Positions 245 through 49,373 of a DNA stretch of 64,000 bases are shown here, piece after piece (within the stretch, counting starts at the first letter, position 1; each line of letters begins with the position of its first letter). Source of the DNA: Minisyncoccota bacterium. Lineage in GTDB: Bacteria; Patescibacteriota; Minisyncoccia; Minisyncoccales; JAQTPW01. The DNA is taken from NCBI GenBank assembly GCA_028712565.1, contig JAQTPW010000001.1, positions 2,653 to 66,652 on the forward strand, read 5' to 3'. The notes below the pieces were generated by a model. That model was not told where the DNA came from and did no database searches. It was given only the letters and a program-made list of their open reading frames with translations. Position numbers and translations under genes: made by a program.

Positions 245-1219
245 ATGCTTATTGATGATGTAAAAATAAATGTGGCGGCGGGGAGCGGCGGAAAGGGAAC
301 GGTAACATTTAATAGGACTAAAATGAATCGCGGGCCTACGGGCGGCAGCGGAGGAAAGGGCGGCAGTGTTTTTGTTGAAGGAATTTCCGATTTAAGCGCG
401 TTGAATAAATTTCGTTTTAAAAAAGTATTTAATGCAGAAAACGGAGAAGACGGCATGTCTCGGCTTCACGACGGCCGCGACGGAAAGGATTTAATTTTGT
501 CTGTTCCCCTCGGAACCGTGGTGCATAAATTAAATACAGGAGAAGATGTTGAAATAACTAAAATAGGTCAGCGCGAGATTATTGCCCGGGGCGGAAGGGG
601 CGGAAAAGGAAATTATCTTTTTCGGTCATCAACCAATACTACTCCGAAAGAATTTGAAGAAGGAAAAATCGGCGAATCGTTCGATTTGCGTTTGGAATTA
701 AAATTAATTGCGGATGTGGGATTTGTCGGGCTGCCAAATGTCGGCAAATCAAGTTTGCTTAACGAGCTGACAAACGCCAAAAGCAAGGTGGCTAATTACC
801 CTTTTACGACGTTGGAGCCGAACTTGGGGGTTTATTACGAATTGATATTGGCCGATCTTCCCGGACTGATTGAAGGGGCTTCCAAAGGCAAGGGTTTAGG
901 CATTAAATTTTTGCGGCACGTGGAGCGCACAAAAATACTTTTTCATATTATTGCCGCCGATTCAGCAGATCCGGTTTTGGATTATAAAACCGTGAGAGGC
1001 GAATTAGAGGCATACAATAAATTGCTTTTAGAAAAAAAAGAATATATTTTTGTAAGCAAAAGCGATGCGGTTTCGCAAGATGCGGCCGATAAGATAATCG
1101 ATAAACTTGAAAAATTAAATCAAAACGTGATGCTAATTTCCATATATGACTGGGACAGCATTGAGCGCGTCAAAAAAATACTCAACGATTTGATTTCAGA
1201 GAAAAAAGTTGTGGTATAG
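245..1219 (+). CDS. obg: GTPase Obg/CgtA
   Basis: 324 aa. Gly-rich Obg N-domain (GSGGKG..GGSGGKGG), G1 GLPNVGKSS, G3 DLPGLIEGA. Confidence 0.95.
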   Translation: MLIDDVKINVAAGSGGKGTVTFNRTKMNRGPTGGSGGKGGSVFVEGISDLSALNKFRFKKVFNAENGEDGMSRLHDGRDGKDLILSVPLGTVVHKLNTGEDVEITKIGQREIIARGGRGGKGNYLFRSSTNTTPKEFEEGKIGESFDLRLELKLIADVGFVGLPNVGKSSLLNELTNAKSKVANYPFTTLEPNLGVYYELILADLPGLIEGASKGKGLGIKFLRHVERTKILFHIIAADSADPVLDYKTVRGELEAYNKLLLEKKEYIFVSKSDAVSQDAADKIIDKLEKLNQNVMLISIYDWDSIERVKKILNDLISEKKVVV

Positions 1220-2092: not shown

Positions 2093-2451
2093 ATGAAATT
2101 TGATTATATCCTACTTTACGTATCTGATTTGGAAAAAACATCTGATTTTTACGAAAAACTTGGGTTTGAAATCGTAAAATCTACGGCAAAAAAATAGTTG
2201 TTAAATTGGGCGATTTTGAACTTCATTGCTACGATCAGTCAAAAGTATTTTTCAAGCAGGATGTGGACAGAACCAAAGGCGCTGGCGTTTTTATTTATAT
2301 TTCTGTTGAAGACGTAGATGAAAAGTATTCGGAATTAATGAGTAAAGGATTGCAGCCCTCTGGAGAACCGAAAGATTTTGATTGGGGAAATCGAGAGTTT
2401 GCAATTAAAGACCCCGACGGCTATAAGATAATTTTCTATAAGAAAAAGTAA
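2093..2451 (+). pseudogene. VOC/glyoxalase-bleomycin-resistance family gene with a frameshift
   Basis: MKFDYILLYVSDLEKTSDFYEKLGFEIV..TAKK* (stop at 2195-2197) continues in another frame as ..KLGDFELHCYD...KDPDGYKIIFYKK. The break falls in the A7 run at 2188-2194. Confidence 0.7.
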
Positions 2452-2541
2452 TTTTCGGACGGGGAAGCAATAAAATCGCTAGATTTTCTCCAAGATCAGA
2501 ATAAATTGCAGAAAAGAAAATTTTACGTATAATAAAAATAT

Positions 2542-3051
2542 ATGTCAAAGCAAGAAAGTATCCCCTACGAAGAAGTTTTTTTGGCTTTAAACAAAGAAGG
2601 TATAAATTACGCAGTTTGCGGAGGATTGGCAGTGGTTCTATATGGATATGCCAGACTGACCGTAGATCTGGATTTGATCGTCGGTTTAGAGAAAGAAAAT
2701 CTGGAAAAACTTTATAACACCTTAATTAAATTAAACTATAAACCGCAGATTCCAATTAAAAAAGAGGAATTTATCCAAAAAGAAATGCTTGAAAAATTAG
2801 CCGAAGAAAAAAATATGAAAGTGGTTTCTTTTTATAACCCAAAAGAACCCTTCAACGTGATTGATATTGGCGTTAATTTGCCCAACATCTCAAAAATTTT
2901 GGAAAAGAAAAAACAAATTAGGATTAATGGCTTTTCTGTGCCGATAATTTTAATAGACGATTTAATCAAAATGAAAGAGGATTTAGCGCGTCCTCGCGAC
3001 TTAACCGATGTTGAAAACCTTAAAAAAATCAAAAAAGAAAAAAGATATTGA
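2542..3051 (+). CDS. Pol-beta-superfamily nucleotidyltransferase-fold protein
   Basis: 169 aa. CGGLAVVLYGYARLTVDLDLIV fits the hG[GS]-x9-13-DhD NTase motif. No partner gene recognised. Confidence 0.45.
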   Translation: MSKQESIPYEEVFLALNKEGINYAVCGGLAVVLYGYARLTVDLDLIVGLEKENLEKLYNTLIKLNYKPQIPIKKEEFIQKEMLEKLAEEKNMKVVSFYNPKEPFNVIDIGVNLPNISKILEKKKQIRINGFSVPIILIDDLIKMKEDLARPRDLTDVENLKKIKKEKRY

Positions 3052-3185
3052 CGAGCATTTGCTTTATATCCTCAAAAACACAACTCCTTATCAGAGAATG
3101 GTTTGGTTAAAAAAAACTTTAGATTTCTGGAAAACATTAAAAAGAAAAGAGCGGGTTGGCAACTAAAATTTAGAATACGTAAAAA

Positions 3186-3215
3186 CCGCCCTGAGTCACC
3201 CGAAGGGCGGTTTTT
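3186..3215. terminator. Rho-independent terminator hairpin
   Basis: CCGCCC (3186-3191) / GGGCGG (3205-3210), 13-nt loop TGAGTCACCCGAA, then T5. A-run upstream, so it could act on both strands. Confidence 0.7.
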
Positions 3216-3216
3216 G

Positions 3217-3246
3217 TTTACACTAAATTTGCTAAAGTGGTAGTAT
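3217..3246 (+). promoter_or_regulatory. Conserved promoter module (copy 2)
   Basis: TTTACA (3217-3222), 18 nt, TGG-TAGTAT (3241-3246). ATG at 3254, suggesting a leaderless or near-leaderless mRNA. Confidence 0.55.
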
Positions 3247-3253
3247 AAAATAT

Positions 3254-3700
3254 ATGCCAAACGAAAGATTCAAATTAATAGCTTCTGTCTATTTGGTTTT
3301 AATAAGAGATAATAAAATTCTTCTCTCAAGAAGGTATAATACCGGGTATTTTGACGGCAATTATAGTTTTCCCGCGGGGCATATTGATGGAAATGAAACA
3401 TTAAAGCAAGGTTTGGTTAGAGAAGTAAAAGAAGAAATCGGCGTTGATCTGGAATCGAATGATTTGGAGTTAATCCATGTAATGGACAGAAAAATACCAG
3501 ATGACGAAAGATTGGATTTCTTTTTTAGAACAAAGAAATACTTGGGTGAGCCAAAAATTATGGAAACGAACAAGTGTGATGATTTAAGCTGGTTCGAACT
3601 TAATAATTTGCCTCAAAATATAATTCCGTATATAAAACAAGCGATTGATTCTATTTTGAATAATATAATTTACAGCGAAAGAGAAGGTTTGGAGAAATAA
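3254..3700 (+). CDS. NUDIX hydrolase
   Basis: 148 aa. Nudix box GHIDGNETLKQGLVREVKEEIGV. Confidence 0.9.
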   Translation: MPNERFKLIASVYLVLIRDNKILLSRRYNTGYFDGNYSFPAGHIDGNETLKQGLVREVKEEIGVDLESNDLELIHVMDRKIPDDERLDFFFRTKKYLGEPKIMETNKCDDLSWFELNNLPQNIIPYIKQAIDSILNNIIYSEREGLEK

Positions 3701-3701
3701 T

Positions 3702-4124
3702 ATGAAAAAACGGCCGGATGTGACGGTGAAAATGATGCTACGGTATAAAGATGAAGTTTTGATGGTAAAACATAAGGACGGGCATTTCGGTTTTCCCGGC
3801 GGGCACGTGGAGTGGGAAGAATCTTTATTCGGCGCGTTAAAAAGAGAGTTGAGGGAAGAATTGAATTATAATTTAAAGAAAGAGCCCAAATTATTTGATG
3901 TTTGGAATTACATTCCAAAGGAAAATCCCGGCGCAACGCATAAGGGCCACACGGTTTTTCTTAATTATATTTTAAAACTTAATAAAAAGCCGGTTCTTTC
4001 TTCTCCCGAGAAGCTCGGAATTTTTTGGCTGAAAAGAAAAGATATTGTTAAAATGAATATTGTTAGAGATAAACAATTTTTAGATAAAGTTTTCAAAAAG
4101 ATAATGGATAGATATATTAATTAA
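3702..4124 (+). CDS. NUDIX hydrolase
   Basis: 140 aa. Nudix box GGHVEWEESLFGALKRELREELN. Confidence 0.9.
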   Translation: MKKRPDVTVKMMLRYKDEVLMVKHKDGHFGFPGGHVEWEESLFGALKRELREELNYNLKKEPKLFDVWNYIPKENPGATHKGHTVFLNYILKLNKKPVLSSPEKLGIFWLKRKDIVKMNIVRDKQFLDKVFKKIMDRYIN

Positions 4125-5526: not shown

Positions 5527-6546
5527 ATGAATAATAAAATAATTAGAAGTATTTGTTATTTTGATAAAGAACCGTCAGACGAGACGATCGAAAGATTAGA
5601 TAAAATAGCGGGCATTCTCACGGGGAGGGGATTTGAAATTCAAACGAAAAGAGTTTGTTCGTCATCTGTTGATAAAATAATTGAACTTGACTCAAAATAT
5701 GCCAGTAATAGTTATATTTTCGGCATCGGATCTTTGCAGAAAGACGAAATACGTCGACGATTTAACGATGTGCTCTCCTGCAAGGACACTTCATTCAATC
5801 TGGATTTAACCGGGAGGGAGATTACAATTGACGACGCACAATTACTTTTCGAAATCATCAGAAGGAATTCCAGCAAGACATTTAATTTTACTTACGTATT
5901 TAATAACCGGCCTTCGAGCCCTTTCTTTCCTTCGGGATCATATCAAAAGGACGGATTTTCAATCGGTCTGCAGCCAACGGATTTATCCGAAGATTGCAAT
6001 TCAATTGGAGAATGGCTCGAGAAGATGAAGGAAGTGTGGCTGGAAATTTATAATTTATTCAAAGACGATCCCGAATTTTTAGGCATTGATTCGTCGATAG
6101 CTCCGCTCTTTTCGGGGAAAAGCAGCTTGATTGGTTTTATAAAAAAATTAGGGTTGGATTTCTCGCGCTCGGCGACAACGGATACTTATCTCGCCATAAC
6201 TAAATTTTTAAAAGAAAATAACCCAAAACCGGTTGGTTTGTGCGGATTAATGTTTCCTTGCCTTGAGGATTTCGAGCTGGCCGAAGAATATGAAAAAGGT
6301 AATTTTTCAATAGAACGCAATGTTTTCCTTTCTTTGCATTCGGGTTTGGGCATAGATACATATCCCATTGCTATTGATGAAAAACCGGAAAGGGTATTGG
6401 AAATTTTGAAATTAGTGCAAGGATTATCGGATAAATATAAAAAGCCGCTGTCTGCGCGTTTCGTTTCAGATGGCAAGGCTAAAATTGGCGAAAAAACTGA
6501 TTTCCAAAATCAATATTTAAAAGACATTACAGTTAGATCTCTATAA
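5527..6546 (+). CDS. Hypothetical protein (possibly UPF0210/DUF711-like)
   Basis: 339-aa uninterrupted ORF. Only a weak remembered resemblance (..GLCGLMFPCLEDFELA..). Confidence 0.4.
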   Translation: MNNKIIRSICYFDKEPSDETIERLDKIAGILTGRGFEIQTKRVCSSSVDKIIELDSKYASNSYIFGIGSLQKDEIRRRFNDVLSCKDTSFNLDLTGREITIDDAQLLFEIIRRNSSKTFNFTYVFNNRPSSPFFPSGSYQKDGFSIGLQPTDLSEDCNSIGEWLEKMKEVWLEIYNLFKDDPEFLGIDSSIAPLFSGKSSLIGFIKKLGLDFSRSATTDTYLAITKFLKENNPKPVGLCGLMFPCLEDFELAEEYEKGNFSIERNVFLSLHSGLGIDTYPIAIDEKPERVLEILKLVQGLSDKYKKPLSARFVSDGKAKIGEKTDFQNQYLKDITVRSL

Positions 6547-6550
6547 TAAA

Positions 6551-7204
6551 ATGAAATTATTTTTGACGTCGGCGGGGTTGCCGCCGGAGACAACTGAAGA
6601 ATTTTTAAAACTGCTGGTTAAAAAGCCTGAAGAAACTAAGGTTTGTTTTATTGCCACGGCTTCTCATCCTGAAGAAAATAAATGGTATGTAGAAAAAGAC
6701 AAGGAGAGATTATTAGAATTGGGTTTTAAAATAACCGAACTGGATTTGAAAGAAGAAAATGAGAATTCTTTAACGGATAAATTAAAAGATTTTGATGTAA
6801 TTTTTGTTGAAGGAGGCAATACGTTTTATTTGCTAAAATATGTCAGGGAAAGCGGTTTTGATAAAGCTTTAAAATTATTTTTAGAAAGAGGAGGAATTTA
6901 TCTTGGAGTTAGCGCCGGCACGATTATTACCGGTCCGAATATTGATACGGCTTGGTGGAAATACGGAGAACCTAGTAAAAATAAGGTGGGCATAAGAGAT
7001 TTAACGGGATTAAATTTAGTTCCCTTTTTAACCGCAGTTCATATAAACGAAGCAAATGTCGCGATTATTAGAAGTTACGCTGGCAAGAGTAGTTATAAAG
7101 TTGTTGCTTTGACCGATAATCAGGCAATTTTAGTACAAAACGGAGAATATAAATTAGTCGGAGAGGGAGAGAAGTATGTTTTTAATACAAATGTAAAACT
7201 ATGA
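6551..7204 (+). CDS. Peptidase S51 (dipeptidase E-like)
   Basis: 217 aa. ..VIFVEGGNTFYLL.. and GVSAGTIITGP, the Ser nucleophile context of the S51 family. Confidence 0.75.
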   Translation: MKLFLTSAGLPPETTEEFLKLLVKKPEETKVCFIATASHPEENKWYVEKDKERLLELGFKITELDLKEENENSLTDKLKDFDVIFVEGGNTFYLLKYVRESGFDKALKLFLERGGIYLGVSAGTIITGPNIDTAWWKYGEPSKNKVGIRDLTGLNLVPFLTAVHINEANVAIIRSYAGKSSYKVVALTDNQAILVQNGEYKLVGEGEKYVFNTNVKL

Positions 7205-7809
7205 GTGTTAAAAATAAACAACTGAAAATAATTGGCATATCTGGAAGCCCAAGAGGACGGAATACAAATTATATGTTGCAGACGGTTTTGGATGCTTCGG
7301 GTTGTTATTACGAAATTATTTTGTTGAAGGATAAAAAAATAAAACCCTGCGCCGCTTGCGGCGGATGTTACAAATCGCACAAATGCGTTGTAAATGACGA
7401 TATGCAAGAATTGTATGAAAAATTACCAAAAGCCGATATTATTATTCTGGCCTCACCGACATTCTTCGCAAACGTTACTGGCATAATGAAAAATTTTATT
7501 GATAGGTGTTTGCCTTTATATCTTTCGGAAAAACTAAAAGGCAAAAAGGCAGTTTTGCTTACAGTTGGTAATTTCAGGAAGGATGAAGTGAGATATTTAG
7601 ATAATTTCGATATTGAAAAAGCAATGAAAAATCCTGCCAGTAGAAGGAAATTAGGAGAATCAATCCGAAGATGCTTGAATATAATGAAAATTTTTTGCCA
7701 AAAACATATGAAAATGAAAGTAATCGGAAGCGTTTATGTTATTAATGGAGATCCCGAATCAAAAAAGAAAGAATTAATAAAATTAGGAAGAATAATTGCA
7801 AATAAATAA
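7201..7809 (+). CDS. NAD(P)H-dependent FMN reductase / iron-sulfur flavoprotein-like
   Basis: 202 aa. ISGSPRGRNT.., a Cys cluster CAACGGCYKSHKC, and ..IIILASPTFFANVTG. Confidence 0.75.
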   Translation: MSVKNKQLKIIGISGSPRGRNTNYMLQTVLDASGCYYEIILLKDKKIKPCAACGGCYKSHKCVVNDDMQELYEKLPKADIIILASPTFFANVTGIMKNFIDRCLPLYLSEKLKGKKAVLLTVGNFRKDEVRYLDNFDIEKAMKNPASRRKLGESIRRCLNIMKIFCQKHMKMKVIGSVYVINGDPESKKKELIKLGRIIANK

Positions 7810-39250: not shown

Positions 39251-40620
39251 TTTTTTTGAGGATTTGATCCTGGTCCAGGATGAACGCTGGCGGCGTGGAT
39301 AAGGCATGCAAGTCGTGCGGCCTGAGTCGCAAGACGAAGGCAGCGGCAAACGGGTTAATAACACGTAGATTACCAACCCCAATCACGGGCATAATCCGCC
39401 GAAAGGCGGACTAATTCCCGATGGTCCGCGCGGGCGTAAGCTTTGCGCGGTAAAGACGTAAGTCGGAATGGGATGGGTCTGCGGCCCATCAGCTAGTTGG
39501 TGAGGTAAAGGCCCACCAAGGCGATGACGGGTAGGGGGGATGAGAGTCTATTCCCCAACAAGGACACTGCGACACGGGTCCTACTCCTACGGGAGGCAGC
39601 AGTCGAGGATATTCGGCAATGGGCGAAAGCCTGACCGAGCGACGCCGCGTGAACGAAGAAGGACTTCGGTCTGTAAAATTCTTTTCTAGGGGATGAACCC
39701 GCAAGGGTGACAGTACCCTAGGAATAAGGGGGTGCAAATTCTGTGCCAGCAGCCGCGGTAAGACAGAACCCCCAAGCGTTATCCGGATTTATTGGGCGTA
39801 AAGGGTCCGTAGGTGTCCCATCGCATCTTTTGTTAAACTTTCAAGGCTCAACCTTGGAAATGCGAAAGACATGGATGGGATTGAGGGCATTAAGGGCTGA
39901 TGGAACGGTCGGTGTAGGGGTGAAATCCGTTGATATCGATCGGAACACCAAAAGCGAAAGCATTCAGCTAGGGTGACCCTGACACTGAGGGACGAAAGCG
40001 TGGGGAGCAAAAAGGATTAGATACCCTTGTAGTCCACGCTGTAAACAATGAACACTAGCTATCTGAAGTGTCGACCCTTCGGGTGGCGAAGCCAACGCAT
40101 TAAGTGTTCCGCCTGGGAAGTACGATGGCAACATTAAAACTCAAAGGAATAGACGGGGACTCACACAAGCGGTGGATCATGTGGCTCAATTCGACAACAA
40201 ACGAGGAACCTTACCAGGACTTGAAAAGCTAGTGAAATCCGCCAGAAACGGCGGACTACCCACAAGGACACTAGCCCAGGTGCTGCATGGTTGTCGTCAG
40301 CTCGTACTCTGAAGCGTACGCTTAAGTGCGATAACGAGCGCAACCCTTATTGTTTGTTTTATTTGTCAAACGAAACCGCCCGCGATAAGCGGGAGGAAGG
40401 TAAGGATGACGCCAAATCAGCACGGCCCTTTGATGTCCTGGGCTGCACACATGATACAATGGGGCTGACAATGGGTTGCCAAGCCGTAAGGCGGAGCTAA
40501 TCCCATCAAACGGTCCCTCAATTCGGATTGAGGTCTGCAACTTGACCTCATGAAGCCGGAATCGCTAGTAATCGCCAATCAGCTATGTGGCGATGAATAT
40601 GTTCCTGAGTCTTGTACTCA

Positions 40621-41480
40621 CAATAAAAGCGCTCGGCAGTTTATTTTTCTATGCGGTTAAAATCCGCGCCTCTAGCCGTCCTAGAGAGTAGCCAAAGGAT
40701 AGTTTGTTACCGCGAGGTAATAAGCGAAGGATTCGGCGGCAAAAGACAGCCCGAACAAAAAAAGGCAAACCGACCCATCAATGAGCGGTGAGGATGGGGA
40801 AGGTCAAAGTAAAGCCTGTTTGGGATGCCCGGAAGAGAAAATTAAATAACCCGAGGAGATCTGACGTTGTTGCCATGAAAATTGCATGGTATAATGAACT
40901 TACGCAGCGTCAGAAGTCAGCTGAATCATAGTAACCTGAGTCCTAAATTTATAAAAGGACAAAGGAGAAGGATTCACTCTAGTAATTATGCTTAATCCTA
41001 ATTATATCGTAGGTTTAGTTGATGGAGAGGGAAGCTTTACGGTGTACGTAAGGCAACCTAATTCTGCCAAGAAAGTAAAACGAAGAGCGAGAGCGGAACC
41101 AAGATTTTATCTGAAACTTATAGAGAAAGATAAAGATATTCTCTATATGATCAAAAGATTCTTTTCTTGCGGAAGCGTTTATTTCCAGAAAGATAATCGT
41201 ATAAACCATCAAAATTGTTATCGATACGAAGTGGCAAACAGAAAAGATTTGGAAGAAATTATTATTCCTTTTTTCAAACGGCATCAACTGAAATTATTGT
41301 CGAAGAAAAAAGATTTCCGGATTTTCTGTGAATTAATGAGAAGAATTAAAAAAGGAGAACATCATACGAAATTAGGATTACGGCATTTATATCTTATAAA
41401 ACAAGGTATGCATTAGAGCTCGTCGCATGCGGGAAATCTGCAGGTGCGATGGGAACATCAACTCTAAGTTCGTAGAGGAT
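40621..41480 (+). mobile_element. Intron (probably group I) in 16S at the site equivalent to E. coli ~1395-1400
   Basis: Conserved ..CTTGTACTCAC stops at about 40621 and ..CTCGCCCGTCACGCC resumes at about 41482. The junction is ambiguous over a repeated ACTC (+/-6 nt). The insert carries a LAGLIDADG ORF. Confidence 0.8.
40988..41416 (+). CDS. LAGLIDADG homing endonuclease (single-motif, I-CreI-like)
   Basis: 142 aa. ..NYIVGLVDGEGSF.. motif, basic DNA-binding saddle. Located inside the 16S intron. Confidence 0.88.
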   Translation: MLNPNYIVGLVDGEGSFTVYVRQPNSAKKVKRRARAEPRFYLKLIEKDKDILYMIKRFFSCGSVYFQKDNRINHQNCYRYEVANRKDLEEIIIPFFKRHQLKLLSKKKDFRIFCELMRRIKKGEHHTKLGLRHLYLIKQGMH

Positions 41481-41804
41481 ACTCGCCCGTCACGCCAAGC
41501 GAGCTGGGAATAGCCAAAGTTCTCCGCAAGGAGACCTAAGCTGGGCTCAGTGAGAGGGGCGAAGTCGTAACAAGGCACGCGTAGGGGAACCTGCACGTGG
41601 ATAAATTATTTTTTTCTAGTATTTCTTAATGAGATACTAGAGTCGACTAAAGTTGAAGGGCGAAAATTTTCTCTTTAACTTTAAGGTGTTAATCTCTAAC
41701 CTAAAATAAAGATTCCTTGGTCTCGCGGAACGAGACCCGGGACAACTCTAAAGGACTAAATCGTGGAAACTAGTAACTGGTTTACTAGTAACTAGTAACA
41801 AACT

Positions 41805-42614: not shown

Positions 42615-43082
42615 ATGCAAATACCGGCAAAAATTTTAAAATTCTTGGATTCGAAAAAGATAAAATATGTTGTAATAAATCATAGGACAGTTTATACTGC
42701 TTATGATAAAGCCACGACGTTGAAGGTGAAACCGAATGTGATTGGAAAGACACTGGTTTTGAAAATAGATTCCAACTTAATTATGGTTTTGGTGCCGGGA
42801 AATAAAAATTTGGATTTGTCAAAAATAAAAAAAGCAGTTGGTGTCCAAAAAATTAATATAGTTTCTGAAACGATTATAAAAAATAAATTCAAGGGAATAA
42901 AAATCGGCGCGATTCCGCCAGCGGCGGAAATTTGGAAATTACGGATATTTATTGATAATAATTTGATGAAAGAAAAAAATATTTTTGTAAATTCGGGAAT
43001 TTACGAAGCATCATTCAAATTATCGCCAAAAGTTTTCGAAAAGTTGGGAGCGGTCGTGGGAAATTTTGGCAAACCCCGTTAG
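42615..43082 (+). CDS. YbaK/ProX-type aminoacyl-tRNA trans-editing (deacylase) domain protein
   Basis: 155 aa. ..VIGKTLVLKID..LIMVLVPGNKNLDLSKIKK.. layout of the YbaK family. The stop codon TAG lies inside the arm of repeat T2 (CCCCGTTAG). Confidence 0.65.
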   Translation: MQIPAKILKFLDSKKIKYVVINHRTVYTAYDKATTLKVKPNVIGKTLVLKIDSNLIMVLVPGNKNLDLSKIKKAVGVQKINIVSETIIKNKFKGIKIGAIPPAAEIWKLRIFIDNNLMKEKNIFVNSGIYEASFKLSPKVFEKLGAVVGNFGKPR

Positions 43083-43185
43083 AAGTTTTGCTAAGATCTG
43101 TGGTAGATTTATAATTTTAAAGATCAAATCGGCTCCGCCTTAAGTAAGATTTTATAAAAAATCTTTAGCGGAACTTCTAACGGGG
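43074..43185. repeat. Inverted-repeat element T2 (CCCCGTTAGAA family)
   Basis: Arms CCCCGTTAGAAGTT (43074-43087) / AACTTCTAACGGGG (43172-43185). Inner hairpin AAGATTTT-ATAA-AAAATCTT. Confidence 0.88.
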
Positions 43186-43305
43186 CAAAGCTAAAAAATA
43201 AAATTTGGGCGGAACGTAAAATCGCTTTGCGATTAACGTTCCAGCCCCGTGAATTTTCAAGATCAAATTTTAAGGGCGATTAGCTCAGCTGGTTAGAGCG
43301 CGTCA

Positions 43306-43456
43306 ATGCTTAATTGATTTTCATAAGCGAGAAAACGGGGGCGTGTAGCTCAGTTGGTTAGAGCACGTCACTGATAATGACGGGGTCAGAGGTTCGAGTC
43401 CTCTCATGCCCACTCTCGCTTATGAAAATCAATTATCCGACGAGCGTAGTGAGGAG
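43306..43456 (+). other. Intervening sequence: 22-bp perfect helix capped by a whole tRNA gene
   Basis: TAATTGATTTTCATAAGCGAGA (43311-43332) is the exact reverse complement of 43414-43435. tRNA-Ile (43339-43412) sits between the two arms. Confidence 0.85.
43339..43412 (+). tRNA. tRNA-Ile (anticodon GAU)
   Basis: Acceptor GGGCGTG/CATGCCC, D stem GCTC/GAGC, anticodon stem CGTCA/TGACG with loop CT-GAT-AA, T arm AGAGG-TTCGAGT-CCTCT, discriminator A. No CCA. Confidence 0.9.
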
Positions 43457-43503
43457 ATCATAATGACGAGGTCAATGGTTCGAGTCCATTATCGCCCACA
43501 AAG

Positions 43504-43575
43504 GGGCCTGTAGTTCAGTGGTAGAACACCCGGTTTGCATCCGGGAGATCGGGAGTCCAAATCTCCCCGGGTCCA
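43504..43575 (+). tRNA. tRNA-Ala (anticodon UGC)
   Basis: Acceptor GGGCCTG/CGGGTCC with G3:U70, D stem GTTC/GAAC, anticodon stem CCCGG/CCGGG with loop TT-TGC-AT, T arm GGGAG-TCCAAAT-CTCCC (unusual C55). Confidence 0.8.
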
Positions 43576-43613
43576 CCGAGTCAAACTCGGTTTGACCGAG
43601 TCAAACTCGGTTT
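43576..43613 (+). terminator. Two tandem identical terminator hairpins
   Basis: CCGAGT-CAA-ACTCGG-TTT repeated at 43576-43593 and 43596-43613. Confidence 0.7.
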
Positions 43614-43701
43614 ACGAGTTTGCGAGGTAGGCAAGTCAGACTTGCCACAATATTTTATAGCAATACCATTTGCAACGTTAGACGTTGCATAAAAAAGAAA
43701 A

Positions 43702-43878: not shown

Positions 43879-44364
43879 ATGAATGAGTTGGCTAATGTAA
43901 CTGACGCAAGAATTAACCAGATTGCTTTAGGTACCATGGGTATTTTTTTGAGGGAACATCCCGTTCCGGAAGATGAAAATAAGTACAAGATGTTTGTGGG
44001 CATATACCAGATGTGTGAGGGTATGTGTAAGGAATGGGAAATGGCAGAGATTAAGGTGACCCCCAGCGAACTTCTTGAAGTTTTCTCGTATGTAGTAGGT
44101 GGCGGAAGCGAGGTAATTTCCGACAGGATGGGACAGATCGCAAACGCCTTCATGAGTATTAAATTGCGAGAAAAGAATCGAGGGGAAGTTGAGGGCGTCA
44201 AACATGTAATTGTCAAATATGTCTGCCCAAAGCCTGAAATGACAAGGATAAATGCCTTGCCTGAAGAACTTTTCGCGGCATATATGCGGATCCGTGTAAA
44301 AATTCTTCGGCACGAGAAGAATCAACCACTTTCCGTCGGGAGCTCCAATAGGAGCGAGAGTTAA
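43879..44364 (+). CDS. Hypothetical protein (orphan), strong SD
   Basis: 161 aa. GGGAGG lies 7 nt upstream of the ATG. By eye, local GC is higher than in the flanks, and long antisense ORFs are probably a by-product of this. No motif recognised. Confidence 0.55.
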   Translation: MNELANVTDARINQIALGTMGIFLREHPVPEDENKYKMFVGIYQMCEGMCKEWEMAEIKVTPSELLEVFSYVVGGGSEVISDRMGQIANAFMSIKLREKNRGEVEGVKHVIVKYVCPKPEMTRINALPEELFAAYMRIRVKILRHEKNQPLSVGSSNRSES

Positions 44365-44996: not shown

Positions 44997-45689
44997 ATGT
45001 TTTTTCAAAATTTAGGAATATCAATTAGCGACGCTCTGATAAATATCTGGAATAGATTTATAAATTTTGCTCCAAATATCATAGTGGCAATAATTATTTT
45101 TGTTATTGGCTGGTTTATTGCGCTTTTTGTTGGAAAATTAATTGCTGAAATCCTAAAGAGATTGAAATTCAATGAGATTTTTGAGAAAGGAAATTGGGAT
45201 GAGGCACTGGCAAAAGCTGATATTAAAGTAGATGTATCTGAGTTTATTGGAGCTATTTTCAAATGGGTTTTAGTGATTGTTTTTCTTCAGCTTTCAGTTG
45301 GTCTTTTGGGTTGGATGCAATTTACCTTGCTTTTGGATAAAATTATAAATTATCTTCCGCATGTAATAGTTGCGGCTTTGATTTTTGTTGTTACAGTTGT
45401 GGTTGTTGATATTGTTGAAAAGTTAGTCAGGGTTACCGTAGAAAGAATGAAAGTGGGCTATGGCCAGACAGTTAGCGCGGTTGTCAGGTGGGCGATTTGG
45501 ACTTTTGCAATTCTGATGATTTTACGGGAATTGATTATTGTGCCTGCATTTATTGACACGATATTTAACGCAATGATTTATGGGACAGTGGCATTTTTGG
45601 TGATATCTTTTGGGCTTTCATTTGGCTTGGGCGGGAAGGAGGCTGCGGCAAAAATGATTGAAGAATTAAAGAGCAAAATTGCAAGATAG
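44997..45689 (+). CDS. Membrane protein with conserved-TM-helix repeats (mechanosensitive-channel-related family)
   Basis: 230 aa, 4-5 TM segments, with repeated ..II.F.IGW..A..VGK.. type helices. Confidence 0.5.
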   Translation: MFFQNLGISISDALINIWNRFINFAPNIIVAIIIFVIGWFIALFVGKLIAEILKRLKFNEIFEKGNWDEALAKADIKVDVSEFIGAIFKWVLVIVFLQLSVGLLGWMQFTLLLDKIINYLPHVIVAALIFVVTVVVVDIVEKLVRVTVERMKVGYGQTVSAVVRWAIWTFAILMILRELIIVPAFIDTIFNAMIYGTVAFLVISFGLSFGLGGKEAAAKMIEELKSKIAR

Positions 45690-45781: not shown

Positions 45782-46332
45782 ATTAGCAGGATTATATATG
45801 AATATAAAAACAAAAACTATAAACAAAGAGAGCGGCTAATTTGCTGTTTTTCGCGCGTGATTGAAGCCGCTTCTCCAAAGCGGTTTTTGTTTTTTCAGTA
45901 GAGCAACTTCGACAAAAGTTTTTAAAGAAAACTTTTAAATCTTAAAAAGAGTCGAAGATGTCTTGCTGGATTTTTCCGAACGGTAAGAACTTTAAAAATT
46001 TATCAGTAAATATTAGGGTCTACAATTAATTAAATTATTTAAAACGATTATTAATTGCTAGCCAAGATGGTAAATTAAGGGCGTATGGTGGATGCCTTGG
46101 GAGATTGAGGCGATGAAGGACGCGGCGTGACTGCGATAAGCCTCGGGTAGGTGTCTAGCAACCTCTAATCCGGGGATTTCCGAATGGGGAAACCCAATTC
46201 CATTTTATGGAATTGCCCTGAGAGCAATCGAAGGGCGCATACCCGCTGAAGCGAAACATCCCAGTAAGCGGAGGAAAAGAAAAAAACTTTTTATTTCCTG
46301 AGTAGCGGCGAGCGAAAAGGAAACAGTCCAAA

Positions 46333-46479
46333 CTTATTACTCCTCACTATTGTTCGGAGCAAAATAATCCGAATATCATCCGAATCTTATCCGAATGCTA
46401 CGAATTTAATTTGCAGATTCGGATTTCATTCGTAGATTCGTATTATTTTTAGCGACGAGCAGCAGCGAGGAGTAATGAG
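46333..46479 (+). repeat. Insertion E2 in 23S domain I, homologous to intergenic repeat E1
   Basis: 24-bp imperfect stem CTTATTACTCCTCACTATTGTTCG / CGACGAGCAGCAGCGAGGAGTAATGAG. The interior aligns with 38805-38890. Confidence 0.85.
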
Positions 46480-46731
46480 GGTTGCAAGGAAATGTCGTCG
46501 GGAGCACCCCTCACGTTGAATTAAATTAATGTGAGGGGTTAACCCGAGGGAGAATATTTAGATAAAGTTTTGCTAGTTAAATGCCCCTGGAACGGGCAAC
46601 CATAGAAGGTAATAGTCCTGTAAACGAAAACAACTTTATGCTCCTTGATGTTTTTCTTAAGTACCACGGGAAAAGAAAGTCCTGTGGGAAACAGGCCCAA
46701 CTATAAGGGCCAAGACTAAATACTCAATCTC

Positions 46732-46770
<39 letters not shown>

Positions 46771-46828
46771 CAGGGAGGTGATCCCGGTGAAATAGAAACT
46801 GAAACCATATGCTCACAAAAAGTTCGAG

Positions 46829-46979
46829 CCCCGTTACAATTTTGCTCCTGACATGGCGAGCGAAGCGCGAGTGGCGAATAGCCACATCCTTTTATGGGCG
46901 CAGCGCTTCGCCCAGCAAGGGTGCACCTATTCGGTGCGCGCGCTGCGCAAAATAATTCAGAGGCAAAATTGTAACGGGG
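46829..46979 (+). repeat. Intervening sequence T3 replacing the tip of 23S helix 25 (CCCCGTTA family arms)
   Basis: Perfect 17-bp arms CCCCGTTACAATTTTGC / GCAAAATTGTAACGGGG around a GC-rich core. Flanked by ..GTTCGAG and TGAGAGCGTAC.., which correspond to E. coli ..GTGGGAGC[H25]GTGACTGCGTACC. Confidence 0.85.
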
Positions 46980-49125
46980 TGAGAGCGTACTTTTTGGAGA
47001 ACGAGCCAACGAGTTTCTTCACGCTTTTTGTCTAAGCCCCTATGGGGCGGAGGCGTAGTGAAAGCAAGCGTTAATAGCGCAAAAAAATAAAGCGTGGGGA
47101 AGACCCGAAGCCAAGCGAGCTTGCCATGATCAGGGCGAACTCTGGAGAAATCTGGAGGGAGGCCCGAACCTATGAGCCGTGCAATACTCTGGGACGAATT
47201 GTGGCAAGAAGAGAAAACCTAAACGAGCTTGGTAATAGCTGGTTCTCCCCGAAACAGCTTTGGGGCTAATGGCAGGTAAAAACTTTTGGAGGTAGAGCAC
47301 TAAATGGATAACCGTGGACTTCGTCCAGGTAATCCAATTAAACTCCGAATACCAGAAGTCTATTTCCTGCTAGCAAGACCGTGGGGGCTAAGCTTCACGG
47401 TCAAAAGGGAAGCAGCCCAGATCTTCATCTAAGGTCCCTAAACTGAGCTAAGTGTTATTAAGGAAGTGGAGTTCCTTTGATAGTTAGGAGGTTTGCTTAG
47501 AAGCAGTAACCCTTTAAAAAGTGCGTAACAGCTTACTAACTAAGGAATTCTGCGCTAAAGATTTAGGGGCTAAGCTCAGTACCGAAGATAAGAATGAACA
47601 TGCAATTTATTGCGTGTTCGTGGTAGGGGAGCGTCCTGCTCGCAGCGAAGATAAATCGTAAGATTTGTTGGAGTGAGCAGGAGTGAAAATGTTGGCATGA
47701 GTAACCGCAATGCAGGTGAAATCCCTGCACACCGAAAACCTAAAGTTTCCTTGGCAACGACAATCGGCCAAGGGTTAGGCGGTCCTTAGCTGAACCCGAA
47801 AGGGGCAAGTGATGGACAGCCGGTTAATATTCCGGCCCTCTGGCCTATTTTTTAGGAAGTGACGAAATTTAGTAACTCGGGCTAATTATGGATTTTAGTT
47901 TTTGCCTTAAGATTTTTCAAAAGGCAAGAAAATGTTCCCCCTCGGGGGGATAAATCCGAGCGAGCAAGTTTCCCAGAAAAACTTCCAAGAGTTAAATAGG
48001 CCGGATCCGTACCAAAACCGACACAGGTAGGTTGGTGTGAATACACTAAGGTGAACGGGCGAAGCCTCGTTAAGGAACTCGGCAAAAAAGTGTTCGTACG
48101 TTCGCAATAAGAACTTCCCGAACCCGCAAGGGTGAGGGACGCAGCGAAAGTTTTCCAGGCGACTGTTTATCAAAAACACAGGTCCCTGCTCAACTCGCAA
48201 GAGGATGTATAGGGGCTGAAGTCTGACCAGCGCTGGAATGTTAAAGGTGAGGGTTGCTTCCGCAAGGGAGTAGCTCATTGCACTAAGCTTCCAGTCAGCG
48301 TCCGCCGTAACTATAACGGTGTTAAAGTAGCGTATCCCCTTGTCAGGTAAGTTCTGACCCGCATGAAAGACTTCACGACTTGGAAACTGTCTCAACGAGG
48401 AGCTCGGTGAAAACACAATACCGGTAAAGATGCCGGTTACCTGCGGCTAGACGGAAAGACCCCGGGAGCTTTACTGTAACTAGATATTGAATTTTGGTTT
48501 TGGATGCGTAGCGTAGAGGTGAGGATTTGAGGCCGCGATCTCGGTTGCGGCTGATCCGACAATGAAACAGCCTTCTTTCGAAACCACAGTTCTAACCCCC
48601 ATTAAATTGGGGAGACAGTGTCTGGCGGTCAGTTTAAGTGGGGCACTTGCCTCCTAAAATGTAATGGAGGCGTTTAAAGGTCGGCTAACTCCGGATGGAA
48701 ATCGGAGTGGTCGTGCAAAGGCATAAGCCGGCTTTACTGCAAGAACTATATTTCGCGCAGTTGGGAAACCAGAACTTAGTGAACCGACGGATTCTCATAG
48801 AAAATCCGAAGATCATCAACCAAAAGTTACCCCGGGGATAACAGGCTAGTAGGACCCGCGAGTCCATATCAACGGTCCTGTTCGGCACCTCGATGTCGGC
48901 TCTCCGCATCCTGGAGGTGAAGTCGCTTCCAAGGGTCTGACTGTTCGCCAGTTAAAGCGGAACGTGAGCTGGGTTCAGTACGTCGTAAGACAGTACGGTC
49001 CCTATCTACCGTAGGCGTTGAATCTTGAGGGGACTTGGGAATAGTACGAGAGGACTTTCCTGAACTGACCTCTGGTGTACCAGCTGTTCTGCCAAGAGCA
49101 TTGCTGGGTAGCTATGTCGGGAACT

Positions 49126-49156
<31 letters not shown>

Positions 49157-49373
49157 AAACCCCAAGATTAGGATTCATAGATTCCAGAGAGACCATCTGG
49201 TCGATAGACTGCCGGTGTAAGCTCCGTAAGGGGTTAAGCCAAGCAGCACTAATAAATCATTACACAAATCTTGACTAGCAATTAATGATCATTGGAAAAT
49301 AATTTAACTAATATTTTAAACCTTAGCGAAAGGCGGCGCGTCAAACGTGCCAGGCCTCGTGAGAGGGCGCTGA

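Follow-up and report, generated by a model that had tools for sequence, protein, structure and literature searches.

Intervening sequences in bacterial transfer RNA (tRNA) genes are, to our knowledge, thought to be group I (rarely group II) ribozymes, while protein-dependent splicing of tRNA is regarded as an archaeal and eukaryal process. Here we describe a locus in a 64,000-nucleotide (nt) stretch of a Minisyncoccota genome (contig JAQTPW010000001.1; the whole stretch is called the window) in which a complete tRNA-Ile gene lies inside the anticodon loop of another tRNA-Ile gene (43274-43498, called the nest). Among the described systems, the group I introns found in tRNA genes of Patescibacteria (Nakagawa et al. 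2026, PMC13011429) share with the nest both the phylum and the site, i.e. the anticodon loop from 33/34 to 35/36. Genes interrupted by such introns are missed by standard tRNA finders and the introns are often vertically inherited (PMC13011429), and the nests are similar in both respects, with vertical conservation in at least one of their families. In contrast to these introns, the nest has neither a ribozyme core nor the U.G/terminal-G signature, the body of its insert is a complete tRNA, and the part of the insert that is not tRNA amounts to just 77 nt.

The nest can also be compared to several other systems that are different in many respects. Archaeal introns of the bulge-helix-bulge (BHB) type can contain a functional RNA, such as the box C/D small RNA in the intron of pre-tRNA-Trp (PMC4090602, PMC3978253), and here, too, a small RNA is found inside the intervening sequence of a tRNA. 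In the split tRNAs of Nanoarchaeum, as in the nest, a long helix beside the anticodon stem holds the two halves. Unlike these archaeal systems, the nest has a bacterial host, there is no BHB in the window and the embedded RNA is itself a tRNA; the halves of the nest, as opposed to those of the Nanoarchaeum tRNAs, share a strand with 151 nt between them, and a single promoter-like and a single terminator-like site enclose both. The intervening sequences of 23S ribosomal RNA (rRNA) that are excised by RNase III (PMC11270868) resemble the nest in that an extended helix is located at the loop of a structured RNA, and both are found in the rRNA region. The 22/22 base pair (bp) duplex in the anticodon loop is of the RNase III type, i.e. 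a near-perfect duplex of about 20 bp or longer that replaces a loop. However, the 23S intervening sequences are excised without ligation and the rRNA works in pieces, whereas the helix of the nest carries a gene. A tRNA cannot decode once its anticodon loop is severed. Homing-endonuclease cassettes and integrative elements are similar to the nest in as much as they insert in genes for tRNA, with sequence of their own that restores or replaces the function; but the element in the window is 151 nt long, without an open reading frame (ORF), an integrase or attachment-site repeats, and the gene interrupted by the nest is left complete, with its complementary halves conserved in relatives. Finally, multimeric tRNA precursors also contain several tRNAs per transcript that are released by RNase P and RNase Z. 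The known precursors of this kind are tandem, not nested; in the nest, freeing one tRNA severs the other. We searched the full-text literature and found no bacterial case in which one tRNA is described as nested in another. The study of Patescibacteria group I introns (PMC13011429) contains neither the word "nested" nor any of the searched terms for tRNA genes that are partial, duplicated or unclassified, and tRNA is not mentioned in the survey of rRNA gene insertions of the Candidate Phyla Radiation (CPR; PMC11270868).

The nest is a genuine pair of nested tRNA-Ile genes in the rRNA region of a Patescibacteria genome, and a 151-nt intervening sequence interrupts the anticodon loop of the outer gene at 33/34 or 34/35 (Table 1). 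When 43274-43305 is joined in silico to 43457-43498, the resulting 74 nt are reported by ARAGORN as tRNA(cat) with every stem paired. In the unspliced locus ARAGORN and Rfam find only the inner Ile(GAU) and the tRNA-Ala(UGC), and the outer gene is missed by the intron mode of ARAGORN as well. The insert is composed of 5+22+6+74+1+22+21 nt; the non-tRNA part makes up 77 of the 151 nt, and 44 of those are in the plain 22-bp duplex. The two arms of this duplex (helix P1) are exact reverse complements of each other (0 matches in 100 shuffles), and no further copy of the arms is present in the 64-kb window at three or fewer mismatches. Note that the position of P1 is subterminal and asymmetric, as it is 3-5 nt from the left junction and 21-24 nt from the right one. 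The 225-nt RNA folds at -87.3 kcal/mol (z = -6.0 compared to shuffles). In the minimum-free-energy folds ATGCT (43306-43310) can pair with AGCGT (43443-43447) to form a helix that we call P0, TCCGACG forms a bulge in the tail, and 43449-43461 forms a tail hairpin, GUGA-GGAGA-UCAU, the 3' strand of which spans the pseudo-positions 33-36. After its loop bases the outer 3' half continues with the 3' strand of the anticodon stem (43464-43468), the variable loop, the T-arm, the 3' strand of the acceptor stem and the discriminator A. The outer and the inner gene are identical at 28 of their first 32 nt and in the whole anticodon stem, they have 80% identity across the last 40 nt, and overall they differ at 12 of 74 positions; four fully compensated pairs differ between the stems, with zero uncompensated changes. 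The original prediction, which was made from the sequence alone, had given the positions and sequences of the nest, the layout of the 151-nt insert, the flawless 74-nt cloverleaf of the outer halves and the paralogy of the two genes, and all of these proved correct on re-reading the window, the cloverleaf through the tRNA finder run on the spliced sequence. The promoter candidate is directly 3' of the ybaK-like gene and about 160 nt 5' of the outer tRNA; together with the terminator-like site it brackets the two or three tRNAs, and tRNA-Ala(UGC) and the outer tRNA are probably in one transcript.

Table 1. Positions of the nested locus, its surroundings and related sites (window positions unless a locus is named).
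Feature	Positions	Strand	Remarks
Promoter candidate, sigma-70-like, TTGCTA-16-TATAAT	43088-43115	+	10/12 consensus match; putative function
Outer tRNA, 5' half (acceptor 5' strand, D-arm, anticodon-stem 5' strand; positions 1-31)	43274-43305	+	Perfect pairing with 43464-43498
ATGCT: A32 U33 (G34) of the outer loop, then first intron bases	43306-43310	+	Sequence and minimum-free-energy folds
Left arm of the 22-bp helix (P1)	43311-43332	+	22/22 Watson-Crick, no G-U, unique in the window
AAACGG, single-stranded 5' leader of the inner tRNA	43333-43338	+	Sequence, folds
Inner tRNA-Ile(GAU), complete, canonical, no encoded CCA	43339-43412	+	ARAGORN; Rfam RF00005, 72.9 bits
Right arm of the 22-bp helix	43414-43435	+	Begins one base (C43413) past the inner discriminator
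Intron tail	43436-43459	+	Folds; tandem-copy test
Outer tRNA, 3' half, with ATAA (35-38) under the GAU join	43460-43498	+	The CAU join would begin the exon at 43459
tRNA-Ala(UGC)	43504-43577	+	5 nt 3' of the outer tRNA; ARAGORN, Rfam
Terminator-like hairpin, then T-rich run	43630-43646	+	Consensus scan; would close the nested-Ile and Ala transcription unit
16S rRNA	39252-40620 and 41484 to about 41602		Split by an 863-nt insertion (40621-41483)
YbaK/aminoacyl-tRNA-editing gene (ybaK-like)	42615-43082		Between 16S and the tRNAs
ORF, unknown	43879-44364		Between tRNA-Ala and 23S
ORF, mechanosensitive-channel-like	44997-45689		Between tRNA-Ala and 23S
23S rRNA	46065-49273		3209 nt against a 2925-position model; several insertions; 5S follows
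Logan contig L121	41875-43299
Logan contig L132	43619-44807
Logan contig L131	44796-46101
GC-rich hairpin site, L091	about 2944-3230	-
GC-rich hairpin site, L030	about 3500-3600
GC-rich hairpin site, L001	about 6560-6620
GC-rich hairpin site, L057	2100-2150

There are two legitimate ways to rejoin the outer gene, each of which removes 151 nt. A join after U33 (5' junction after 43307) combines AT with CATAA and gives the anticodon CAU, and a join after G34 (after 43308) combines ATG with ATAA into ATGATAA (AUGAUAA) and gives GAU. The spliced outer tRNA is predicted to contain either GCGTCAATGATAATGACG or GCGTCAATCATAATGACG at its junction; the GAU join would connect GCGTCAATG to ATAATGACG, and the CAU join GCGTCAAT to CATAATGACG. 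From the sequence comparisons we think that the outer gene is probably a second tRNA-Ile(GAU) rather than an Ile2(CAU), at odds of not quite two to one. The segment 43444-43459 (GCGTAGTGAGGAGATC) matches 43458-43473 (TCATAATGACGAGGTC) at 11 of 16 positions (p ~0.005 in the tandem-copy test) and appears to be a decayed tandem copy of the start of the 3' exon; the C of CAT would then close a degenerate variable-loop copy as its last base, which favours GAU. The outer genes that are most like that of the window (loci from the genome scan described below are given L numbers) also rebuild GAU, unambiguously in L098 and L102 (CTGA + TAA) and, in L071, at the equivalent join (CTG + ATAG). A metagenome scan with the 5' half plus AT gave one match, L123, which is a tandem, partly decayed Ile(GAU) pair without a nest; no other metagenome sequence shares the outer D-arm, the anticodon stem and AT with the window, and the uninterrupted copy in L123 continues ATGATAA. 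The CAU form of the 3' exon had 0 matches in the metagenome scan. The earlier suggestion of an Ile2(CAU) gene of the lysidine type is, in view of the tandem copy, the homologues that rebuild GAU, the ATGATAA sequence and the lack of a CAU match, doubtful. The 30 ORFs scanned in the 64-kb window include no tilS. Nevertheless, the alternative join would give UAU in L071 and CAU in the window, both of which decode the AUA codon, and this keeps CAU alive. As for L123 itself (744-1020, minus strand), the decayed Ile(GAU)-like copy with the loop ATGATAA has an 8-bp hairpin in place of its T-arm and lies about 130 nt 5' of an intact tRNA-Ile(GAU), the acceptor stem of which gains a 9-bp inverted repeat from the flanks.

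The nest is one of a class of intervening sequences that bear a tRNA; the class is widespread in Patescibacteria and, in at least one family, vertically conserved. One scan of 185,579 species genomes for two tRNA D-arms that are too close for tandem genes gave at least 120 loci, on which a nested-tRNA finder was then used. Among these loci there are at least 14 nests with an intact outer cloverleaf, every one of them in a metagenome-assembled genome (MAG) of Patescibacteria. We define the class by a complete, co-oriented inner tRNA that sits on a helix formed by its flanks, within the anticodon arm of a paralogous tRNA whose halves form a full cloverleaf. This is what is found in the window, L011, L022, L061, L065, L066, L068, L071, L073, L076, L079, L096, L098, L102 and L111. 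Seven nests are Ile(UAU) in Ile(UAU) (L011, L061, L066, L068, L073, L096 and L111) and three are Ile(GAU) in Ile(GAU) (L071, L098 and L102), with which the window is counted as a fourth Ile(GAU) nest. In L022 a Met gene lies inside one of Thr or Lys type, and Val nests occur in L065, L076, L079, L057, L081, L116 and L101. The Ile(GAU) nests of the window, L071 and L098 are 3' of a 16S gene; in L102 the one feature upstream is a group I intron match, from which a 16S context is presumed. Among the loci listed the one closest to the window is L071 (Berkelbacteria), where the outer 5' half ends in GGGCGTATAGCTCAGCTGGTTAGAGCGCGTCA followed by CTGCT, as compared to GCGTCA followed by ATGCT in the window. 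A MAFFT alignment of the window, L071 and L098 shows no homology of the intron arms past TGCT and ACGA(R)G, and viral contigs contained no relevant nests. tRNA finders report the inner gene only, so the tRNA counts and anticodon repertoires of Patescibacteria may be incomplete.

The overall course of the insert is the same in the window, L071 and the Ile(UAU) family. On the 5' side the anticodon stem is followed by N32 U33 N34, two nucleotides and P1 (ATG-CT-P1 in the window, CTG-CT-P1 in L071 and CTT-AT-P1 in the seven Ile(UAU) nests). On the 3' side the return strand of P1 is followed by the tail hairpin, with its 3' strand on pseudo-positions 33-36, then by exactly N37 N38 and the 3' strand of the anticodon stem (GUGA/UCAU + AA in the window, AUAC/GUAU + AG in L071, AUAUS/S'AUAU + AC in the seven). 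P1 has 22 bp in the window. Elsewhere it has 5-11 bp, and from it a GA-rich internal loop and then a second helix lead up to the inner tRNA. In the Ile(UAU) family the tail bases can instead pair with the 5' copy of the anticodon, i.e. two mutually exclusive helices are possible. Purine-rich motifs on both strands of the internal loop, RAGYGAR(UA) on the L side and YGAGCGAA / UUGAACGA on the R side, are conserved in all seven Ile(UAU) loci (L066, L068, L073, L011, L061, L096 and L111); they are similar to motifs of the tandem G.A, loop E or kink-turn kind, and a protein may bind there.

The comparison of these sequences indicates that selection acts on the outer halves and on the flanking helix. 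In the 11 outer Ile genes 99.6% of the stem cells are paired, 15 of 21 pairs show changes on both sides, and U8, the D-loop, the T-loop and A73 are invariant. The Ile(UAU) nest is syntenic in at least four genomes (L066, L068, L073 and L111), with flanking DNA that is merely 65-73% identical; identity within these nests is 66-100% for the outer exons, 75-95% for the inner tRNA and 59-74% for the intron arms. Between L011 and L096 the outer gene is 97-100% identical, the inner genes 87% and the arms about 64%, and the outer acceptor stem is unlike either of the inner ones, a pattern that gene conversion does not explain. The sequence of P1 is different in each of the seven Ile(UAU) members, yet it is always complementary and at the same position, and the closing pair of the tail hairpin covaries from C-G to G-C. 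The window has a kind of internal clock, as 5 of 16 bases (31%) of the tail copy are changed while the 67 exon bases keep a perfect cloverleaf; neutral drift would thus have occurred at the locus while the outer gene stayed undamaged. Taken together this suggests that the Ile nests, including that of the window, behave as though the outer gene were still under tRNA-type selection.

The explanation we favour, to which we assign a probability of about 0.4, is that RNase P and RNase Z set the inner tRNA free, and that the outer halves are recut and rejoined by an endonuclease and a ligase. The promoter and terminator scans point to one transcript that would contain the outer 5' half, an arm, the inner tRNA, the other arm, the tail, the outer 3' half and tRNA-Ala. 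Given the established specificities of the two enzymes, RNase P would cut at 43339 and RNase Z after A43412 to free the inner tRNA, and the 22-bp duplex would be a likely substrate of RNase III, judging by what that enzyme is known to cut. Such a release, leaving two clamped outer halves, had been proposed before and is reasonable on the same enzymatic grounds. Comparative evidence suggests that the halves would be clamped by the acceptor stem, the anticodon stem and P0, and that a protein endonuclease could then cut at defined sites and a ligase rejoin the ends into a second mature tRNA-Ile. A more general proposal, which we consider doubtful at present, is that this represents a third kind of tRNA splicing in Patescibacteria, neither group I nor BHB/EndA, in which an embedded tRNA on a helix defines the intron, the outer anticodon loop would be restored by an endonuclease and a ligase dedicated to this task, and one locus produces two mature tRNAs. 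We speculate that the same splicing machinery might also deal with those insertions in CPR rRNA genes that are unexplained and not introns. If the outer genes are indeed rejoined, bacteria possess an unrecognised pathway of RNA cutting and ligation in which a tRNA is the structural core of an intron. An RNase P external-guide substrate (the arm followed by UCC) was also considered and rejected, as ATGCT would stay with the 5' half after the predicted cut and the loop would make no sense.

There are a number of points against rejoining that need to be discussed together with the other explanations. We know of no protein-dependent tRNA splicing in bacteria, and none of rtcB, rnc, tilS or EndA is among the 30 window ORFs scanned, which are all ordinary housekeeping genes. 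The inner and outer anticodons are nearly always equal, so that the spliced outer tRNA would be redundant, and unusual loop bases are commoner in the outer than in the inner genes (A32 in the window and L011, G38 opposite C32 in L071). In a Val(GAC) family (L057, L081, L116 and L040) the outer gene keeps 1-35 and 41-76 without 36-40, and the "TTCACCC...GGGGCARG" family has an internal loop of 13 nt throughout and an outer loop with two bases fewer than a cognate anticodon loop; a cognate tRNA cannot be obtained from the outer genes of either family. The self-nested "Russian dolls" L116 and L102 suggest mobile DNA with a spare tRNA over splicing; in L068, L071 and L073 the outer gene is almost equal to the inner one, and gene conversion could mimic purifying selection there. 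The 22/22 helix without G-U looks young or kept at the DNA level, and some outer genes are decayed or invaded by GC-rich hairpins (L027, L040, L091, L030 and L001). Nests probably arise when a tRNA with paired flanks is duplicated, guided by homology, into a paralogue's anticodon loop, and many of these events leave a dead outer gene. The main rival explanation, which we hold to be somewhat unlikely, is that in the window as well a small cassette (arms and tRNA-Ile) came, as a copy, to lie in the anticodon loop of a tRNA-Ile paralogue, e.g. by homing (homology-directed repair set off by an endonuclease), that the cassette tRNA replaces the broken gene, and that the unused outer halves are intact through recency or through gene conversion from the inner copy. 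This would be a new selfish-DNA strategy, in which the insertion breaks an essential gene and brings a spare copy, leading to Russian-doll nests. In favour of this explanation, cargo and target are nearly always the same isoacceptor, and the nests L116 and L102 are what one would expect if a cassette homed repeatedly into the cargo it carries itself. Families that share conserved element termini (TCC...GGA; TTCACCC...GGGGCARG) are found in differing tRNA contexts, and their outer genes lack loop bases or have mismatched acceptor stems (L027, L040, L091 and L101). Small GIY-YIG nuclease ORFs in tRNA-plus-ORF cassettes (L062, L094, L095 and L103) fit a homing process, as do, in the window, the 22/22 arms without G-U, a possible duplication of AT at the junctions and the unusual A32 of the outer loop. 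However, the arms are without a second copy in 64 kb and are subterminal and asymmetric, and the repeat at the junctions, possibly the 2-nt AT in the window, is inconsistent across the nests (0-6 nt). In the syntenic Ile(UAU) nests the outer gene is conserved like the inner one, and the acceptor stems differ in a manner unexplained by gene conversion, while in the window the tail copy has drifted and the outer stems are undamaged. The earlier alternative of a very recent insertion that inactivated the gene thus fits some of the other nest families but is disfavoured in the window, given its drifted tail copy and perfect cloverleaf. A simple transposon appears unlikely: a target duplication of fixed length and terminal repeats at the true ends were not seen, and there is no second copy in the window.

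Another explanation, which we find clearly improbable, is that the outer halves are never ligated and are selected as an RNA structure, i.e. as a non-decoding, tRNA-like scaffold that prevents mispairing with the nearly identical inner halves or offers RNase P and RNase Z handles for excising the module from a long precursor. In all outer genes the four stems (acceptor, D, T and anticodon) and the nucleotides of the elbow are either conserved or changed with compensation, and the bases of the anticodon loop are the least canonical ones (A32, G38) or, in the Val families, absent; those Val families without loop bases nevertheless keep perfect acceptor and T stems (L057, L081, L101 and L116). 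Moreover, the outer and inner acceptor stems often differ by compensated pairs (3 pairs in L061, 2+2 in the window, 4 in L096), as would be expected if cross-pairing were selected against. On the other hand, the inner tRNA has its own RNase P and RNase Z sites, and a second handle would be without obvious benefit; the avoidance of mispairing leaves the invariant T-loop, D-loop, U8, U33, R37 and A73 unexplained; the Ile families retain all seven loop bases, which can be rejoined to a canonical loop; and position 38 changes in parallel in the outer and inner genes of L066. It is very improbable that the insert is a classical intron, whether a group I ribozyme that has degenerated or a BHB of the archaeal type, for which an EndA-like enzyme would make the cuts and RtcB would seal them, even though group I introns are known at 33/34 and 35/36 in tRNA genes of Patescibacteria (PMC13011429). 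At E<=10 neither 43200-43620 nor L073 has a match to an Rfam group I or other ribozyme, and there is no RF00028 match at the gathering score either; besides the tRNAs, no known ribozyme or RNA family is found in the nest. The insert has only 77 non-tRNA bases, whereas a group I ribozyme has about 200 nt or more, and its boundaries do not carry the group I signature, as with a join after U33 the intron ends in U and with an intron ending in G the 5' exon ends in A31. We know of no EndA in bacteria. For junctions a=0-5 in both orientations no BHB can be drawn; the best window hit in the scan has 3/4 central pairs and never occurs with both flanking helices. The original prediction had found that neither intron type fits, and we agree. 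L071 can be drawn at 33/34 as a perfect helix/3-nt bulge/4-bp helix/3-nt bulge/helix motif (about 577-590 and 757-775, scores 4/4, 3/3, 3/3) that would yield tRNA-Ile(UAU); it is possibly due to chance, being one match in about 72 tests with about 0.07 expected, and is rivalled by a much stronger 11-bp helix. An assembly artefact, in which repeated tRNA k-mers led to a chimeric or duplicated join in the MAG, is the least probable explanation. The sequence does come from a metagenome-assembled genome, there is a run of N within the L102 nest, and independent Logan contigs from SRR22315508, which match the window exactly, break on either side of the tRNA cluster (they stop at 43299 and resume at 43619), so that the nest is not covered by them. 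But a misjoin would not make perfect-cloverleaf halves around an insert with perfect 22-bp arms, the inner and outer genes differ at too many positions (12/74) to be collapsed copies, and the same architecture is present, with synteny and covariation, in many independent assemblies. The break at 43299 is inside the outer D-arm and may reflect strain heterogeneity or k-mers that are common to other tRNA genes.

A number of loci related to the nests contain further insertions. In L116 (about 6430-6790) at least three identical layers of 5' half plus linker precede one complete tRNA-Val(GAC), which is followed by the matching 3' layers. L102 (about 2368-2790, minus strand) has at least three layers around a tRNA-Ile(GAU), and the run of N inside makes the number of layers uncertain. 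In L094 (about 7027-7490), L062, L095 and L103 a full tRNA and a GIY-YIG ORF of 81-94 amino acids are located between overlapping partial tRNA copies, which have an altered anticodon arm (an 8-nt loop, ATGGAAAT/ATGGACAT) or no loop; such cassettes occur in CPR, Acidobacteriota and Phycisphaerae. Some partial or outer tRNA copies have CC(C/T)GCCC...GGGCGG hairpins in a T-arm or an anticodon arm (Table 1), and in L057 a 14-nt hairpin without an inner tRNA is present where a nest would be. These GC-rich hairpins may be a family of mini-insertions in the tRNA genes of Patescibacteria. A large serine recombinase gene (2232-3824, minus strand) abuts the nearby tRNA-Ala in L071.

The window is a piece of bacterial chromosome with about 37% G+C, which a protein match at 100% assigns to a Candidatus Pacebacteria MAG, and the nest sits in a dispersed rRNA region composed of 16S, the ybaK-like gene, the nested Ile genes with tRNA-Ala, two ORFs, 23S and 5S; in other words, the rRNA "operon" is interrupted by protein genes. 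The homologues of the ybaK-like gene show no synteny with tRNAs. The insertion in the 16S gene is located near E. coli position 1400 and carries a single-domain LAGLIDADG ORF (40988-41416), with no Rfam group I match at E<=0.01. The 16S end reported by Rfam at 40651 was rejected as an alignment artefact, and the true 3' end (...GGAACCTGCACGTGGATAAATTA) is without the usual CCUCC anti-Shine-Dalgarno sequence. A tandem 20-nt direct repeat at 43568-43607 (CGGGTCCACCGAGTCAAACT / CGGTTTGACCGAGTCAAACT) begins within the 3' end of tRNA-Ala and forms successive hairpins right before the terminator-like site. The insertions in the 23S gene resemble RNase III-type intervening sequences, and one of them (46342-46472, about 131 nt) contains an imperfect 32-nt inverted repeat.

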